Source: a virus
Taxonomy: Duplodnaviria > Heunggongvirae > Uroviricota > Caudoviricetes
Strand: one strand, 5' to 3'
DNA length: 4,174 bases
Virus record (IMG/VR): IMGVR_UViG_2695420624_000001
Shown here: positions 1 to 4,174 of the stretch, piece after piece
How the letters are laid out: every line of letters begins with the position of its first letter
Position numbering within the stretch: position 1 is the stretch's first letter
Made by a program: the position numbers and the translations under genes
Notes under the pieces: generated by a model
Told to the model about the DNA's origin: nothing
Databases searched by the model: none
What the model saw: the letters and a program-made list of their open reading frames with translations, nothing else

Positions 1-209
1 CATCAAATCACATGATTCTGGCACAATATTCGTAACCAGTAAGCGCATACCCTGAATCACTTAAAAGTGTAACTCTCAGGGTTCGAATGACTATATCTGG
101 CACAAAGCGGACAACCACGCCAGATCTACCCTGTGCCATGAAAAATGAGAATGTCAATTCACTCCTGAACTAATGCTTTTTAATCTAGTAACGTCTAAAA
201 TACCTAACA

Positions 210-611
210 TTATCCCTGATAAAATGCCAGTATGCGCTGCATAACTTCACTCATCCGGCACTCGCGACAGATTATGTTTAGGCGACTGTCGTAGCGACGT
301 ATTTCTCCATCAGGTAACGACCAGATAAGGTCCGGATCAACCACAGCTGTTTTCTTCACCTTTGCCCTCGATAGTTTTTTGCGGGCGTTTTGCCAGTCCT
401 TACGCGCCTGTTCAGACGGGAATAACCCGTAGCCGGAGTTGTATACATCGCCACTGGCTACCAGCTCTCTGGCAAGAACGCTCATCAGATATCTAGTCGC
501 ACCTGTTTTAGCTTCCAGTTGCCGTAACGTCTCACGACCGCTCTGGCGCACGAGTTCCACCACCTGCCCTTTAATTTTTTCCCGCTCTTCTTGTGTAAAA
601 ACTTTTGCCAC
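210..611 (-). CDS. Hypothetical prophage protein (133 aa), last gene of the leftward early operon; the N-terminal half may be a winged-helix/HTH fold; function unknown
   Basis: Long ORF in the track. The start is GTG at 609-611, preceded on the minus strand by a strong Shine-Dalgarno AAGGGGGA (plus 615-622) with a 3-nt spacer; the next in-frame Met is far downstream (residue 43). It lies 40 bp downstream of the O-like gene stop (TAA, 652-654), same strand, consistent with an operon. Stop is TAA at 210-212. No family recognised by eye. Confidence 0.6.
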   Translation of the reverse strand: MAKVFTQEEREKIKGQVVELVRQSGRETLRQLEAKTGATRYLMSVLARELVASGDVYNSGYGLFPSEQARKDWQNARKKLSRAKVKKTAVVDPDLIWSLPDGEIRRYDSRLNIICRECRMSEVMQRILAFYQG

Positions 612-651
612 AAGTCCCCCTTAAAATTACCTCATGACCTGAAATCAAAAC

Positions 652-1617
652 TTATCCTCTGAAACCAGGCGGAATTTCTGTATCCGGTTCAGAAATATGA
701 TTCACACAACGCTGTACAGGTGAACGTCCCAGGCGGATGACCAGTTCGTCCCATTTTTCGCGGAGTTTTGACGGGCTCATGATGTTTTTTACCCAGAATG
801 GATCCCGCTGTACCCGACCAAACATTTCGCAAATTTGTCTGTGGCTTCTGCCATCCAGCATCCGCATTGTGCGCACGTCATTGGCCCAGGCTGTCCAGTT
901 AGGCTCTTTTGGTCGCATGATCTCTCCATCGTCGCTGGCAGCCTGTTCGTAAAGGTTCACGATCCGCCCCCAAATCCACTGCGCACACGCCAAATCCTCC
1001 CTGCTACCCCACTGGCGTTTTTTCACACTAAACACAACCGCGTCGGGGTTCCGGGTTAAAAAATCCTGTTCAGTCGTCTGCGGGTCCGGTTGCGAAGCTT
1101 CCGGACGAAAAGTGTTTTTATTCTCTGTAGTAATCTCTGTTGTATTCTCTGTAAGATCATCAGGCCATTTTGACCCGATGACATTGGGTCGTTTTGAACC
1201 AATGAAGCGTTTCATTTTGACCTCTTCCATCGTGTCATTTTGACCTGATGGAGCGGCGCATTTTGAACCGATGGATTCGTTCAATTTGCCACCATCTAAA
1301 AGCTCGCTCCCATAGTTGATCGTGTAGAAATTGGTCATATCGCGCTTTGATTTATTGAGCTTTTCACAACGCAAAAGCCCCTGCGTTTTCAGACTTGCAA
1401 ACGCGCGTTTTAACGTTGACTCTGACCAGAATGGGAACTGTTCCAGCCATTGTTCCGTTGTGTTATAAATCCAGCGAACACCATCACATTCCATACCGGA
1501 GTTGGTATCTCTCAACCAGTAGTGCAGTTGTTGCAAAACAATGGCTTCGTTTAAGCCGATTTTCATTGCCAGCTGCGTGTTTATAACCAGTGGGCGTTCA
1601 GCAAAAAGAAGACTCAT
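652..1617 (-). CDS. Replication initiator protein, lambda O-like (N-terminal DNA-binding domain, iteron-encoded linker, C-terminal domain); the track ORF extends to 1671 with a TTG start
   Basis: A 339-aa ORF occupies the O position after the cro-like and cII-like genes. Its central part is encoded by the iteron array, giving low-complexity peptide repeats (FIGSKRPNVIGSKWPDD), as in lambda O where ori lies inside the gene. The track start at 1671 is TTG with no SD; the in-frame ATG at 1615-1617 has a partial SD (GGATGG) and is preferred; another ATG at 1564-1566 lacks an SD. Stop is TAA at 652-654. Confidence 0.65.
   Translation of the reverse strand: MSLLFAERPLVINTQLAMKIGLNEAIVLQQLHYWLRDTNSGMECDGVRWIYNTTEQWLEQFPFWSESTLKRAFASLKTQGLLRCEKLNKSKRDMTNFYTINYGSELLDGGKLNESIGSKCAAPSGQNDTMEEVKMKRFIGSKRPNVIGSKWPDDLTENTTEITTENKNTFRPEASQPDPQTTEQDFLTRNPDAVVFSVKKRQWGSREDLACAQWIWGRIVNLYEQAASDDGEIMRPKEPNWTAWANDVRTMRMLDGRSHRQICEMFGRVQRDPFWVKNIMSPSKLREKWDELVIRLGRSPVQRCVNHISEPDTEIPPGFRG
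1119..1154. repeat. AT-rich block with three tandem 12-bp repeats (TATTCTCTGTAG / TAATCTCTGTTG / TATTCTCTGTAA) next to the iterons; candidate DNA-unwinding element of the origin
   Basis: TCTCTGT recurs at 1122-1128, 1134-1140 and 1146-1152 with exact 12-bp phasing, in a locally AT-rich stretch (about 1108-1160) immediately downstream of the iterons in the gene's reading direction, as for the AT-rich region of lambda ori. Confidence 0.45.
1157..1290. repeat. Putative phage origin of replication: five to six direct iterons of about 23 bp, core CATTTTGACC/CGTTTTGAACC, several near-palindromic (e.g. CATTGGGTC-GTTTT-GAACCAATG)
   Basis: Repeat cores seen at 1166-1175, 1190-1200, 1213-1222, 1236-1245 and 1259-1269, with a degenerate copy near 1283-1290; spacing is 23-24 bp. 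Each has a central T4 tract flanked by partial dyad symmetry (CATC...GATG). They lie inside the initiator coding sequence, matching the lambda ori-in-O architecture. Confidence 0.6.
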
Positions 1618-2119
1618 AATTCCATCCAGCTTTTTGTTGGTATTGCTGTCGATACGCAAGCTTGAAAGCAATTGCTTTTTCTATAAGTTCGTCAGTTTCA
1701 CGATCTACAACGGCAGGATCTGCAAAAAGCAGTCCAGATTCCACCACATCGCCATATTCTTTATTTAACCCGGCGATCATGTACGTAATACTTTTTCCAT
1801 CACTGATCTCACGATACAACCTGAAATCACTAATCCGGATAGCCTCCATAATTGCAGGCACTAGCGCTGTGAACTTTTCACGCTTATCCCTGGTGTCGAT
1901 AGCCTTCCAGCGTTCGAATATCTTCACTCGATTAACGCTAAGCGCTCGCTGATCAACCGCGCCACCTTCATATGTGACACGCTGAACATCGATGTTCGGG
2001 CGCTCTTTCAAAGCCCAGAATGCTTCAGTGATTAATATCGTCGCCTGCTCCTGTGTCATTCCTGGTCGACATATCCAGGCATCCAGAGCCTCACGAGCCT
2101 GTTCAGGAGTGATTTTCAT
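1598..2119 (-). CDS. Early-region protein (173 aa) in the cII / YdaT position between the cro-like gene and the replication initiator; putative CII-like/YdaT-family regulator
   Basis: Long ORF with ATG at 2117-2119, overlapping the upstream DicC-like stop (TGA 2103-2105) by 17 nt, which suggests translational coupling. Its own stop is TGA at 1598-1600, overlapping the start of the O-like gene. The family call is by position and size only. Confidence 0.6.
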   Translation of the reverse strand: MKITPEQAREALDAWICRPGMTQEQATILITEAFWALKERPNIDVQRVTYEGGAVDQRALSVNRVKIFERWKAIDTRDKREKFTALVPAIMEAIRISDFRLYREISDGKSITYMIAGLNKEYGDVVESGLLFADPAVVDRETDELIEKAIAFKLAYRQQYQQKAGWNYESSFC

Positions 2120-2330
2120 TGTTCAACCGCCCCGTCCGCTTCGTCTTACGATATTCGTCATAAACTTTGGGATCATACTGAAGCTCCCCGCCAGATGCCT
2201 CCTGTAGACGCATCGCGCGACCTTCAGGAACCAGTATCCCCCAGGCAGCAACACTTGCCAGTCTCACTCCTGCGGCATTGGCAAGCTTTGTTTTGCTGCC
2301 AAAAAAAGTAATTGCGTCAACTTTAAGCAT
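2103..2330 (-). CDS. dicC: Cro-like small DNA-binding regulator, DicC/YdaS family (75 aa from the ATG at 2328-2330; the track ORF starts one codon earlier at a TTG)
   Basis: Small ORF divergent from the DicA-like repressor. A strong SD AGAGGGGG (plus 2336-2343) sits 5 nt upstream of the ATG. A sigma70-like promoter lies on the minus strand upstream. Size and position match dicC relative to dicA in Qin. Confidence 0.6.
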   Translation of the reverse strand: MLKVDAITFFGSKTKLANAAGVRLASVAAWGILVPEGRAMRLQEASGGELQYDPKVYDEYRKTKRTGRLNNENHS

Positions 2331-2343
2331 CAAAGCCCCCTCT

Positions 2344-2361
2344 TGTTAGACTTTTCTAACA
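2344..2361. promoter_or_regulatory. Operator-like palindrome O1, TGTTAG-N6-CTAACA (perfect dyad), in the dicC-dicA intergenic region
   Basis: TGTTAG at 2344-2349 and CTAACA at 2356-2361 are exact reverse complements separated by 6 bp. The site overlaps the predicted -10 and transcription start of the leftward dicC promoter. The same 18-bp motif recurs twice downstream of dicA. Confidence 0.55.
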
Positions 2362-2388
2362 TTATTGTGCGCGGGATACCTAAGTCAA
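2361..2388 (-). promoter_or_regulatory. Putative sigma70 promoter of the leftward (dicC-like) operon: -35 TTGACT and -10 AATAAT with a 16-bp spacer
   Basis: Minus-strand sequence reads TTGACT (plus 2383-2388), 16 nt, AATAAT (plus 2361-2366), about 25 nt upstream of the SD of the dicC-like gene. The -10 abuts operator O1. Confidence 0.4.
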
Positions 2389-2410
2389 GAAAAATTAGAA
2401 TTACCTAACT

Positions 2411-2818
2411 ATGGATACAAGAACCCTAGGCCAGCGAGTTCTGGCGCGACGAAAAGAATTACGCTTAACACAACGAGAAGCTGCGCGCCTCGCTGGAGTT
2501 GCTCACGTCACAATTTCACAATGGGAAAGAGACGAAACCCAGCCAGTCGGAAAACGATTGTTTGCTTTAGCGGATGCTCTGAAGTGCTCACCTACATGGC
2601 TAATGTTTGGTGATGAAGACAAGGCACCAGTGCCTGCACAAGAACTTCATGTGGAAACAGAGCTAACTCCCAACCACAAAGAATTGATCGAATTATTCGA
2701 TGCTCTTCCATCTTCCGAGCAGGAAGCCTTGCTGTCTGAAATGCGCGCAAGAGTAGAAAACTTCAACAAACTCTTCGAAGAAATGCTTAAAGCGCGTAAA
2801 AATAAATCAATAAAATAA
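2411..2818 (+). CDS. dicA: HTH XRE-family repressor, DicA-like (135 aa), the cI-analogous immunity repressor of this prophage
   Basis: ORF of 135 aa. The N-terminal helix-turn-helix (LTQREAARLAGVAHVTISQWER) and the conserved blocks LFAL...CSPTW..FGDEDK and ELFDALP.SEQ...EMRARV.NFNKLFEE..KAR match DicA of E. coli Qin as recalled from memory, with the same length. It is divergent from a Cro-like gene. Stop is TAA at 2816-2818. Confidence 0.8.
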   Translation: MDTRTLGQRVLARRKELRLTQREAARLAGVAHVTISQWERDETQPVGKRLFALADALKCSPTWLMFGDEDKAPVPAQELHVETELTPNHKELIELFDALPSSEQEALLSEMRARVENFNKLFEEMLKARKNKSIK

Positions 2819-2854
2819 CATTCTTTTCAAGTGATTAGTTGCGCCCACTCTTTT

Positions 2855-2872
2855 TGTTAGACCAACCTAACA
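2855..2872. promoter_or_regulatory. Operator-like palindrome O2, TGTTAG-accaac-CTAACA (perfect; extended arms TTTGTTAG/CTAACAAA at 2853-2874)
   Basis: Same half-sites and 6-bp spacer as O1, located just upstream of the predicted -35 of the rightward ydfA-ydfB promoter. Confidence 0.5.
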
Positions 2873-2880
2873 AAAAACAC

Positions 2881-2909
2881 TTGCCTCTCATGTTAGGTTA
2901 TTCTAAATT
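2881..2909 (+). promoter_or_regulatory. Putative repressor-controlled promoter of the rightward ydfA-ydfB (dicB-type) operon
   Basis: -35 TTGCCT (2881-2886), 17-bp spacer, -10 TAAATT (2904-2909), overlapped by O3 and preceded by O2. This is analogous to the DicA-repressed dicB-operon promoter in Qin. The hexamers are only moderate matches to consensus. Confidence 0.35.
2891..2908. promoter_or_regulatory. Operator-like site O3, TGTTAG-gttatt-CTAAAT (right half-site degenerate, 4 of 6)
   Basis: Same left half-site and spacer length as O1/O2. It lies between the predicted -35 TTGCCT (2881-2886) and -10 TAAATT (2904-2909) of the rightward promoter, where a repressor operator would sit. Confidence 0.4.
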
Positions 2910-2986
2910 ACTTTCCATCAAGACACCGCACGGTGTTCTCAGCAAACAGTTCCGCTACCCCGGCGTTAAGGGGAAATGAGGTCAGC

Positions 2987-3142
2987 ATGGATACTATCGA
3001 TCTTGGCAACAACGAATCTCTGGTATGCGGCGTGTTTCCCAACCAAGACGGCACGTTCACCGCGATGACGTATACCAAAAGCAAAACGTTTAAAACCGAA
3101 GCTGGCGCGCATCGCTGGCTGGAAAGAAATTCAGGTGAGTGA
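2987..3142 (+). CDS. ydfA: YdfA-like small protein (51 aa), first gene of the dicB-type operon downstream of dicA
   Basis: The ATG at 2987-2989 is preceded by GAGG (2978-2981). The track ORF (2933..3142) starts at an upstream GTG without an SD, so the shorter form is preferred. Size (51 aa) and position immediately downstream of dicA match ydfA of Qin as recalled. Stop is TGA at 3140-3142. Confidence 0.6.
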   Translation: MDTIDLGNNESLVCGVFPNQDGTFTAMTYTKSKTFKTEAGAHRWLERNSGE

Positions 3143-3143
3143 T

Positions 3144-3272
3144 ATGGATTTCGACGCAATCATGGAAAAGGCTTACGAAGAATACTTCGAAGGCCTTGCC
3201 GAAGGCGAAGAAGCTCTCAGCTTCAGCGAATTTAAACAGGCGCTTTCCAGTTCGGCAAAAGCTAACAACTGA
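3144..3272 (+). CDS. ydfB: YdfB-like small protein (42 aa): MDFDAIMEKAYEEYFEGLAEGEEALSFSEFKQALSSSAKANN
   Basis: Not in the ORF track (too short); found by manual translation. The ATG at 3144-3146 lies 1 nt after the ydfA stop (TGAtATG), with GGTGAG upstream. It is 42 codons to TGA at 3270-3272. Size and position match ydfB of Qin as recalled. The acidic, helical-looking composition is plausible for a small protein. Confidence 0.55.
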   Translation: MDFDAIMEKAYEEYFEGLAEGEEALSFSEFKQALSSSAKANN

Positions 3273-3342
3273 GAGGTTTATGATGGAATTGAGAGTTTGT
3301 TTCAAACTCTCAATAAACCAGAGGCAGGTAAGGAGCGTTAAA

Positions 3343-3362
3343 TTATTGCTTGAAAGCAATAA
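3343..3362 (-). terminator. Hairpin (8-bp perfect stem TTATTGCT/AGCAATAA, 4-nt loop) immediately 3' of the 177-aa minus-strand gene; possible weak intrinsic terminator
   Basis: Perfect inverted repeat at 3343-3350 and 3355-3362, 2 nt beyond the TGA stop (3365-3367) of the minus-strand gene. On the minus strand it is followed by TTTAA only, so the U-tract is short, and the stem is AT-rich. Confidence 0.3.
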
Positions 3363-3364
3363 GA

Positions 3365-3898
3365 TCACTCAATCTCACCGCTATAGGCATTCCATCTGAG
3401 CATGAGGGTACGCCAGAAAATATCGTTTATGTGCAAAACACAGTATGGATTTTCGTCGGGAAGGAGTTGCCCTTCCATGGGGAGCAAAATATTAGTAGAT
3501 ACCAGTTTTTTTATATCAGAATCATTGCGTACAGCATGGATCACAGGATAGTTCCTCGATAATGCCGTAATAAGAATTTTTTTCTGACCCGCAGTCAAGG
3601 AATCGATAACTGCATTGATATGACTGATTGTTTTTTGTTCTCTTGTATTGTTCCGGTGACTTCGCCAGACCTTACGAAGAAATAAAGCTAAACGTTGGAG
3701 ATTTATAGCCAGCACAAAAGAAAAGGCAAAAACGAATACCGGGTAAATATAAGGAATGCTGATTTTGTCTTGAACATACTCCGGTACAGAATCAGGCATA
3801 AAGAGCAATATCAAAACAAAGATAATAAGCATATACATAAGGCGCTCTAAGGGTTCGTTACTGAATAACTTGCTCAACAAGCCGAATACATCAGGCAT
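3365..3898 (-). CDS. sieB: Two-transmembrane membrane protein (177 aa) in an AT-rich island; SieB-like (superinfection exclusion protein B) by architecture and synteny
   Basis: Long ORF with ATG at 3896-3898 and GAGAG upstream. Two hydrophobic segments (about residues 20-36 LMYMLIIFVLILLFMP and 49-72 IPYIYPVFVFAFSFVLAINL) precede a soluble C-terminal domain of about 100 aa. It is markedly more AT-rich than its neighbours. It is oriented opposite to the rightward early operon and points back toward the repressor, as sieB does relative to racR/kilR in Rac. The symbol is a position-and-architecture call, not a verified alignment. Confidence 0.5.
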   Translation of the reverse strand: MPDVFGLLSKLFSNEPLERLMYMLIIFVLILLFMPDSVPEYVQDKISIPYIYPVFVFAFSFVLAINLQRLALFLRKVWRSHRNNTREQKTISHINAVIDSLTAGQKKILITALSRNYPVIHAVRNDSDIKKLVSTNILLPMEGQLLPDENPYCVLHINDIFWRTLMLRWNAYSGEIE

Positions 3899-4010
3899 AT
3901 TAATAACTCTCTACTGTAAGGGTATTAAAATGCTATCACAGACTCTCGCTGTAGGGGTATAGCCGAGACCACCGAGCCTGAAGTGGTAAAAAGACAGGCA
4001 CACAACACGA

Positions 4011-4074
4011 AAGCGCACGGCGAGGCTGTTAGTTCATAAATGGTCTGTCGTTAAATTTTCGTCGACCGTGCGCT
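4011..4074. other. Long-range perfect inverted repeat AAGCGCACGG (4011-4020) / CCGTGCGCTT (4065-4074) enclosing a 44-nt AT-richer loop, within a GC-rich non-coding stretch
   Basis: Exact 10-bp reverse-complement arms seen directly. The surrounding 3940-4174 also holds small GC hairpins (CCGCG-aaatgg-CGCGG at 4090-4105; CGGGG-N9-CCCCG at 4118-4136). No ATG-initiated ORF of meaningful length on either strand. Confidence 0.3.
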
Positions 4075-4174
4075 TCCGGTTGTGGCAATCCGCGAAATGG
4101 CGCGGCGGTAAGTATGGCGGGGTTATTCCTTCCCCGTTGAGGACACCGGGTTGTCAGGTTGACCATACGCTTAA

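Follow-up and report, generated by a model that had tools for sequence, protein, structure and literature searches.

The protein of 133 residues encoded at positions 210 to 611 of the window (that is, the whole stretch of 4,174 nucleotides analyzed in this work) is, as judged from profile and sequence comparisons, homologous to the Ren protein of phage lambda. Its gene invariably closes the replication operon, the position that ren holds after O and P in lambda. On balance, we consider it probable that the protein, a Ren-family member in the ren slot, plays a Ren-like accessory role, with the phage initiator itself probably recruiting the host DnaB-DnaC complex. The better lead for the missing helicase loader is the initiator and not the 133-residue protein, which is a member of the Pfam family DUF977.

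Genomic context and properties of the gene

The window comes from an E. coli lambdoid prophage of the Qin/Rac/mEp460 type, of which it covers the region for immunity and replication, and its bases 96-4174 match chromosomes such as that of E. coli AR_0017 at 99.6% identity. The operon on the minus strand comprises a Cro-like gene, a YdaT/CII-like gene, an O-like initiator gene and the DUF977 gene, in this order:

2103..2333, minus strand, Cro-like gene, first of the operon (Pfam P22_Cro, 5.2e-12)
1598..2119, minus strand, YdaT/CII-like gene, second of the rightward-type operon (Pfam YdaT_toxin, 4.2e-06; PHROG 163, CII-like, 8.7e-41)
652..1617, minus strand, O-like replication initiator, annotated as 'phage replication protein O' (PHROG 391, 8.3e-92)
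615..622, minus strand, Shine-Dalgarno sequence AAGGGGGA, 3 nt 5' of the GTG start, read from the minus-strand sequence
210..611, minus strand, DUF977/Ren-like coding sequence of 133 residues (ORF list, PGAP, Pfam, PHROG and dN/dS)

The leftward immunity side (2411-3898) carries genes for a 135-residue HTH_3 repressor, for YdfA (DUF1391) and for a YdfB-like protein, together with a SieB superinfection-exclusion gene at 3365-3898 on the opposite strand.

The reading frame of the 133-residue protein is bounded on the minus strand by a GTG start at 611-609, the earliest start available past the upstream in-frame stop, and by a TAA stop at 212-210. A gap of 40 nt, without overlap, separates it from the stop of the initiator gene, and neither a promoter-like nor a terminator-like site was detected on the coding strand of this gap. 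PGAP annotates the same coding sequence in E. coli DNA that is 100% identical (WP_001151189.1, 'DUF977 family protein' in RefSeq). The gene is under strong purifying selection, with dN/dS values of 0.04-0.12 at dS up to 0.56 when compared with 36 distinct alleles from related prophages. An earlier note on this DNA, made from the letters alone, had described a well-expressed-looking gene with a strong Shine-Dalgarno sequence and a GTG start; the gene is real and, with AAGGGGGA at 622-615, does look well expressed. The same note had also allowed for a remnant, which the dN/dS values contradict, and the pseudogene reading was excluded on these grounds.

The exact protein was found in 17,097 index blocks of a public assembly collection, and the copy carried by phage mEp460_ev081 is 99.2% identical. 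The 3' end of the gene varies among alleles, since the window allele stops after ...AFYQG (133 residues; 210-215) whereas most database relatives run on with NFQEVMA or similar residues, reaching 140-141 residues. A 99% identical copy is encoded on a 5-kb contig labelled 'MAG: Bacillota bacterium' (JAEWTL010000124.1), which is probably a case of metagenome-bin contamination.

Relationship with DUF977 and lambda Ren

The protein had been regarded in the earlier note as an unknown, a view that family searches overturned. Its residues 1-133 aligned with positions 1-131 of the 134 in the Pfam profile PF06163 (DUF977, 'LygF'; E 6e-27, 94.8 bits vs. a cut-off of 22.1), so that it is a full-length member showing no difference from the family. 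It also matched PHROG 142, 'Ren-like exclusion protein' (E 1.9e-44), a profile on which lambda Ren (96 residues, gene ren, NP_040633) obtained an E value of 1.6e-41. Ren was assigned no family in the Pfam search and remained outside DUF977. When 13 diverse DUF977 proteins were compared with 11 Ren proteins by hhalign, the two groups aligned over 75 columns, from the helix-turn-helix through the C-terminal motif, with a probability of 96.7% and an E value of 3.8e-10. By BLASTP, NIICRECRMSEVMQRILAFY paired with NLVFKECRQSAAMKRVLAVY of Ren (residues 73-92) with 10 identities out of 20 (50%). The note had named clear homology to a known replication domain as a result that would speak against its reading; the homology, to Ren, is indeed clear, but Ren is an accessory and not a core replication protein.

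DUF977 is a narrow family, only 97 representatives at 50% clustering reaching an E value of 0.001, many of them fragments. Several phage records name the DUF977 protein 'LygF', which is only the name of a locus in Sdr I, a difference region of Salmonella Enteritidis, and says nothing about function. Neither DUF977 nor Ren matched any defence-system model in PADLOC or any NCBIfam model, and a PDB sequence search with the 133-residue protein returned chance-level matches only (E 0.15 or worse). The protein is thus already catalogued, as a member of DUF977 and PHROG 142 with an identical sequence in RefSeq, and nothing in it falls outside known kinds.

Besides profile homology and membership in PHROG 142, Ren and the DUF977 protein share the order of their domains (first a helix-turn-helix, then, at the C-terminus, the ECRxSxxMxRxLAxY helix) and the place of their genes, each being the final gene of the replication operon ahead of the nin or cargo region. 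They differ in several respects. The DUF977 protein is 37 residues longer, with an additional long helix and a variable linker (67-106), and the first cysteine of its CxxC, conserved within DUF977, is a phenylalanine in Ren (FxxC). The window gene directly follows the initiator gene and starts 40 nt past it, whereas lambda ren follows P and overlaps it translationally. In view of the 37 extra residues and of CxxC vs. FxxC, the function of DUF977 may have diverged from that of Ren.

Architecture of the protein

The AlphaFold2 model of the protein, built from an alignment of 13 sequences, had a mean pLDDT of 78.6. Two regions stood out:

417..593, minus strand, winged helix-turn-helix of three helices and a beta wing, codons 7-65 (AlphaFold2, Foldseek, hhalign)
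216..293, minus strand, C-terminal motif YDSRLNIICRECRMSEVMQRILAFYQ, codons 107-132, family signature with the CxxC (conservation, identity with Ren)

The winged helix comprises helices at residues 7-24, 29-36 and 40-53 and strands near 57-64, and the block means of pLDDT were 89-94 for residues 11-80. Past it the model continues with a long helix (67-88) and, after a linker predicted with little confidence, a C-terminal helix (116-132); confidence was low in the C-terminal third (pLDDT 50-77). Foldseek searches of the PDB and of the BFVD viral models retrieved GntR, MarR and ArsR winged helices (E 0.004-0.05; the fold of residues 7-65 matched with a probability of 0.9-1.0 but at E 0.02 or worse), that is, generic winged helices only and no specific relative in either collection, and hhalign paired the helix-turn-helix of DUF977 with that of Ren. 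DUF977 had been noted before as a winged helix (PMC2686095). The N-terminal winged helix that the earlier note had proposed as possible was supported by the pLDDT values and the Foldseek matches. The N-terminal 60 residues share this fold with the MarR, GntR and ArsR transcription factors, but there is no significant sequence similarity to them and the DUF977 protein is without their dimerisation or effector domains; no second domain of the MarR or GntR type was found in the 133 residues.

Conservation in DUF977 peaked in the C-terminal motif and not in the helix-turn-helix. Among 13 diverse DUF977 proteins, 10 of the 12 invariant columns fell in this motif (Y107, N112, C115, E117, C118, R119, S121, M124, R126, and F130), whose consensus is YDRxxNxICxECRxSxxMxRxLAFY and whose second half (E-C-R-x-S-x-x-M-x-R-x-L-A-x-Y) is common to Ren. 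The single CxxC (CRECR) pointed out previously is present: C115 and C118 are the only cysteines of the protein, which has no histidine, and the CxxC is invariant in the same 13 proteins. A zinc site within a single chain was ruled out, because four ligands would be needed and the chain offers two cysteines and no histidine. The CxxC may form a metal site between two chains or have a redox role.

Position in the operon with and without helicase loaders

The absence of P-like, DnaC-like and DnaB-like genes from the replication module was confirmed: in the window, the initiator gene is followed by the DUF977 gene with no helicase-loader gene in between. This arrangement was compared with that of 67 prophage loci from IMG/VR, each extending 3 kb or more upstream of its DUF977 gene. 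The IMG/VR scan replaced one in which the C-terminal motif was searched for in representative genomes and which had given only two loci, one of them probably a contaminated MAG. In 39 loci the initiator directly preceded DUF977, always ending 41 nt before it. The remaining 28 presented the initiator, a loader (24 DnaC-like and 4 P-like), YdaW/DUF1627 and then DUF977, and the DUF977 protein behind loaders was 94-96% identical. The long form, with loader and YdaW, occurs in phages Rac-SA53, 75/02 Stx and phiSTEC1589, and the short form in mEp460_ev081 and HannyBb; an initiator variant 58% identical to that of the window was found both with and without the cassette of DnaC-like gene and YdaW. Since DUF977 closes the operon both with and without a loader, it is no stand-in for one. 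The place that the earlier note had read as that of the loader is in fact the ren slot, as in the lambda order O-P-ren-ninB, and it is kept in loci of both kinds and irrespective of the type of initiator. As to the co-occurrence with the initiator that the note had proposed to analyse, an initiator was present in all 67 loci, and in 28 of them a loader also preceded DUF977.

The protein also lacked the marks of the two known types of loader. It matched neither Phage_lambda_P (PF06992) nor PHROG 109, both of which were matched by the positive control, YdaV of Rac-SA53. Likewise, Pfam gave no match to the DnaC/IstB AAA+ type (PF01695) and the 133 residues contained no Walker A sequence (GxxxxGK[ST]), whereas gp16 of 75/02, used as control for this type, matched IstB_IS21 at 8.4e-19. 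What DUF977 has in common with the lambda P and DnaC/IstB loaders is only the neighbourhood, just past a phage initiator gene; it is half their size, has no ATPase motif and co-occurs with both types.

YdaW/DUF1627 (PF07789) of the Rac-type modules resembles DUF977 in having helix-turn-helix regions and in a weak match to PHROG 142 (5e-05, residues 84-133), but it is a separate family of about 255 residues and is absent from the window. It always accompanied the loader and stood immediately upstream of DUF977 (for instance, at 4223-4984 of locus L004 and 3216-3986 of L007). Ren-like proteins may be its distant relatives or its partners.

Modules without a loader occur in complete phage genomes. 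In those of HannyBb and mEp460_ev081, tblastn with lambda P, a P-like loader, a DnaC-like loader, E. coli DnaC and DnaB as queries gave no match better than E 0.2, and according to a published report mEp460 goes through both its lytic and its lysogenic cycle (PMC9836094).

Left edge of the window

Downstream of the DUF977 gene the window contains two further segments:

97..209, minus strand, conserved trailer of 113 nt past the DUF977 stop, up to a sharp mosaic junction near 96/97
1..96, unstranded, end of an IS110-family insertion sequence at the cargo junction (identity with loci carrying the transposase gene)

Twelve loci, with about seven types of downstream cargo, were identical to the window for 112-114 nt past the stop and then diverged from it at the same point. 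Positions 1-96 were 100% identical to a locus (L005) in which the IS110-family transposase gene WP_021559923.1 follows 136 nt further on, and the same 95 nt adjoined the same transposase in an unrelated tail-fibre context. Copies of this end were present at 70 places in 58 genomes, mostly plasmids. Judging from relatives, the transposase gene should lie about 136 nt past the left edge of the window. IS110-family elements encode a guide ('bridge') RNA in their non-coding end, upstream of the recombinase gene. An Rfam search of the whole window, at E values up to 1, gave no match.

Ten other contexts of the identical protein showed Cro, YdaT, the 321-residue initiator and DUF977, then variable cargo, followed by hok, rem, DUF968, RusA (in some contexts) and Q. 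The types of cargo (loci L097-L106, 7403-10000) included GmrSD_N; DUF7380 with EMARD_N; AAA_13; SDR with WYL; NUDIX with HAD; and genes of unknown type. The slot past the trailer resembles a hotspot of defence or moron genes. A loader just beyond the left edge, which the earlier note had proposed to look for, was rejected: an insertion sequence lies there and the other contexts hold cargo, so no loader is hidden outside the window.

The initiator, its DnaT-like tail and the probable origin

Three features were located in the initiator gene:

655..714, minus strand, DnaT-like tail QRCVNHISEPDTEIPPGFRG, the last 20 codons of the initiator (BLASTP to E. coli DnaT)
1119..1154, unstranded, three tandem 12-nt repeats TATTCTCTGTAG
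1119..1273, unstranded, probable origin inside the initiator gene, the three 12-nt repeats plus five iterons (repeat search)

PHROG 391, which the initiator matched, is labelled 'replication initiation O-like'. PGAP and the phage records place the start of the initiator at ATG 1617, giving 321 residues and an overlap of 20 nt with the end of the YdaT-like gene; the longest reading frame starts at TTG 1671 and has 339 residues. Its C-terminal domain and that of lambda O share 34% identity (E 2e-27). Beyond it, the tail was identical to the C-terminus of E. coli DnaT at 14 of 20 positions (BLASTP 1e-7), with SEPDxxIPPGFRG shared and SEPDTEIPPGFRG as the last 13 residues of the initiator, and it also matched the DnaT chains 2ru8, 6aep and 9zbt and the end of NCBIfam NF002770. 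The tail is found as well on initiators with different upstream sequence, and it is absent from lambda O and from the Rac-type YdaU. Among the 67 loci, which are mosaic relatives and not independent of each other, it was present in 39 of 39 modules without a loader, in 24 of 24 with a DnaC-like loader and in none of the 4 with a P-like loader.

A literature search for the PPGFRG tail motif retrieved no paper. For DnaT itself, a 2026 preprimosome paper and a 2014 paper on DnaT and ssDNA indicate that residues 154-179 contribute to cooperative ssDNA binding, and they name no partner. The likeness suggests that the tail is a case of mimicry that recruits the host DnaB-DnaC. The tail of the initiator would then plug into the partner of the DnaT tail, plausibly DnaC or the DnaB-DnaC complex, and host DnaC would serve as the loader of the loader-less module. 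With a C-terminal domain of the lambda O type and a DnaT tail, both recognised by sequence similarity, the initiator itself probably recruits host DnaB-DnaC.

The five iterons, at 1158-1273, are spaced about 23 bp apart and have the core CATTTTGAMC. Five matches to the iteron pattern were obtained where 0.94 were expected, and none of 200 shuffles reached five. The segment 1119-1273 is probably the replication origin, located within the initiator gene.

Possible function of the DUF977 protein

Mutants in ren are excluded by Rex, and suppressors map in O and P (Thomason et al. 2021, supplement); protection from Rex by Ren is a genetic phenotype (Toothman and Herskowitz 1980, cited in the supplement of Thomason et al. 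2021). Two-hybrid assays, of which those on Ren cover the lambda protein only, detected contacts of Ren with RexA and RexB and also of O with the Rex proteins (Thomason et al. 2021, supplement). The ren gene is non-essential for plaque formation (PMC10695390). By analogy, the DUF977 protein would be a non-essential accessory factor produced together with the initiator, and its target would be the phage replication complex and not helicase loading. The conserved C-terminal helix would most likely contact the initiator and/or exclusion proteins encoded by the host or by a prophage, and this contact may keep phage replication from being aborted by Rex-type exclusion, protecting or tuning the replication complex. 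What the analogy with Ren can supply is a phenotype rather than a mechanism. The window contains neither rexA nor rexB, its exclusion gene being sieB.

Other readings were weighed against the Ren-like accessory role. That the protein is a small DNA-binding transcription regulator, acting on the nin/cargo region or on transcription through the origin and not on replication proteins or exclusion systems, seems unlikely to us, while still deserving some weight. The confidently predicted winged helix, resembling the DNA-binding domains of GntR, MarR and ArsR, speaks for it, as do a match to PHROG 2391 'DNA binding protein' (3e-06), the match of the N-terminal 65 residues of Ren to a PHROG labelled MarR family, the annotation of truncated Ren proteins as MarR family by NCBI, and the location of the gene directly upstream of the conserved 113-nt trailer and the variable cargo slot. 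However, conservation in the family is highest in the C-terminal helix motif and not in the recognition helix, the Foldseek E values are weak (0.004 at best) and reflect a generic fold only, both the MarR dimerisation domain and the GntR effector domain are missing, and the known interactions of Ren are with proteins. The cargo downstream, moreover, differs among otherwise identical modules, which makes a fixed downstream regulatory target unlikely. Far less credit goes to the protein being a decaying remnant or a spurious reading frame of a defective prophage, whose chance we put at practically nil: the shorter allele (133 vs. 140-141 residues in most database relatives) and an insertion sequence 113 nt downstream of the gene would fit decay, but the DUF977 profile is matched over its full length, the gene evolves at a low dN/dS with dS up to 0.56, the identical protein occurs in RefSeq as well as in thousands of index blocks, and a phage carries a nearly identical copy, so that the selection analysis refutes it.

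Two further readings assign DUF977 a part in helicase recruitment. According to one, DUF977 and Ren are replisome-assembly cofactors that, together with the DnaT-tailed O-type initiator, capture host DnaB-DnaC in loader-less lambdoid modules, a proposal that we hold to be quite improbable. According to the other, which strikes us as very improbable, DUF977 is a new helicase loader or adaptor bridging the O-like initiator to host DnaB in these modules. It is true that in all 39 loader-less loci the initiator is followed, at a fixed distance, by DUF977 and that no other gene does so in every one of them, that complete phage genomes with such modules encode no detectable loader or helicase, and that Thomason et al. 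suspect some replication role for Ren. Yet in 28 of the 67 loci an almost unchanged protein also stands behind a complete loader gene of the DnaC-like or P-like type, and this co-occurrence with true loaders makes the loader or adaptor reading unlikely. In addition, similarity to the Phage_lambda_P, IstB/DnaC or DnaD families and a Walker A motif are lacking, the homologue Ren is dispensable for plaques in lambda (PMC10695390), and the initiator has candidate recruiting elements of its own in the lambda-O-type C-terminal domain and the DnaT tail.

Implications

For the 133-residue gene itself little changes: as a member of a catalogued family, it stands where such genes usually do and is already named by annotation pipelines. 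Pfam separates DUF977 and Ren, which are confirmed here as one family with a common C-terminal motif, and Ren, long unexplained, thereby gains many more relatives, which are strongly conserved. If the reading of DUF977 and Ren as replisome-assembly cofactors were true, it would reveal a P-independent route of loading and provide a biochemical role for Ren at last. Lambdoid phage genomes with an initiator but without a loader or helicase gene are a real puzzle, and the idea of the DnaT-like tail is directly testable, both for how such phages recruit host DnaB-DnaC and for the role of the DnaT tail in the host.
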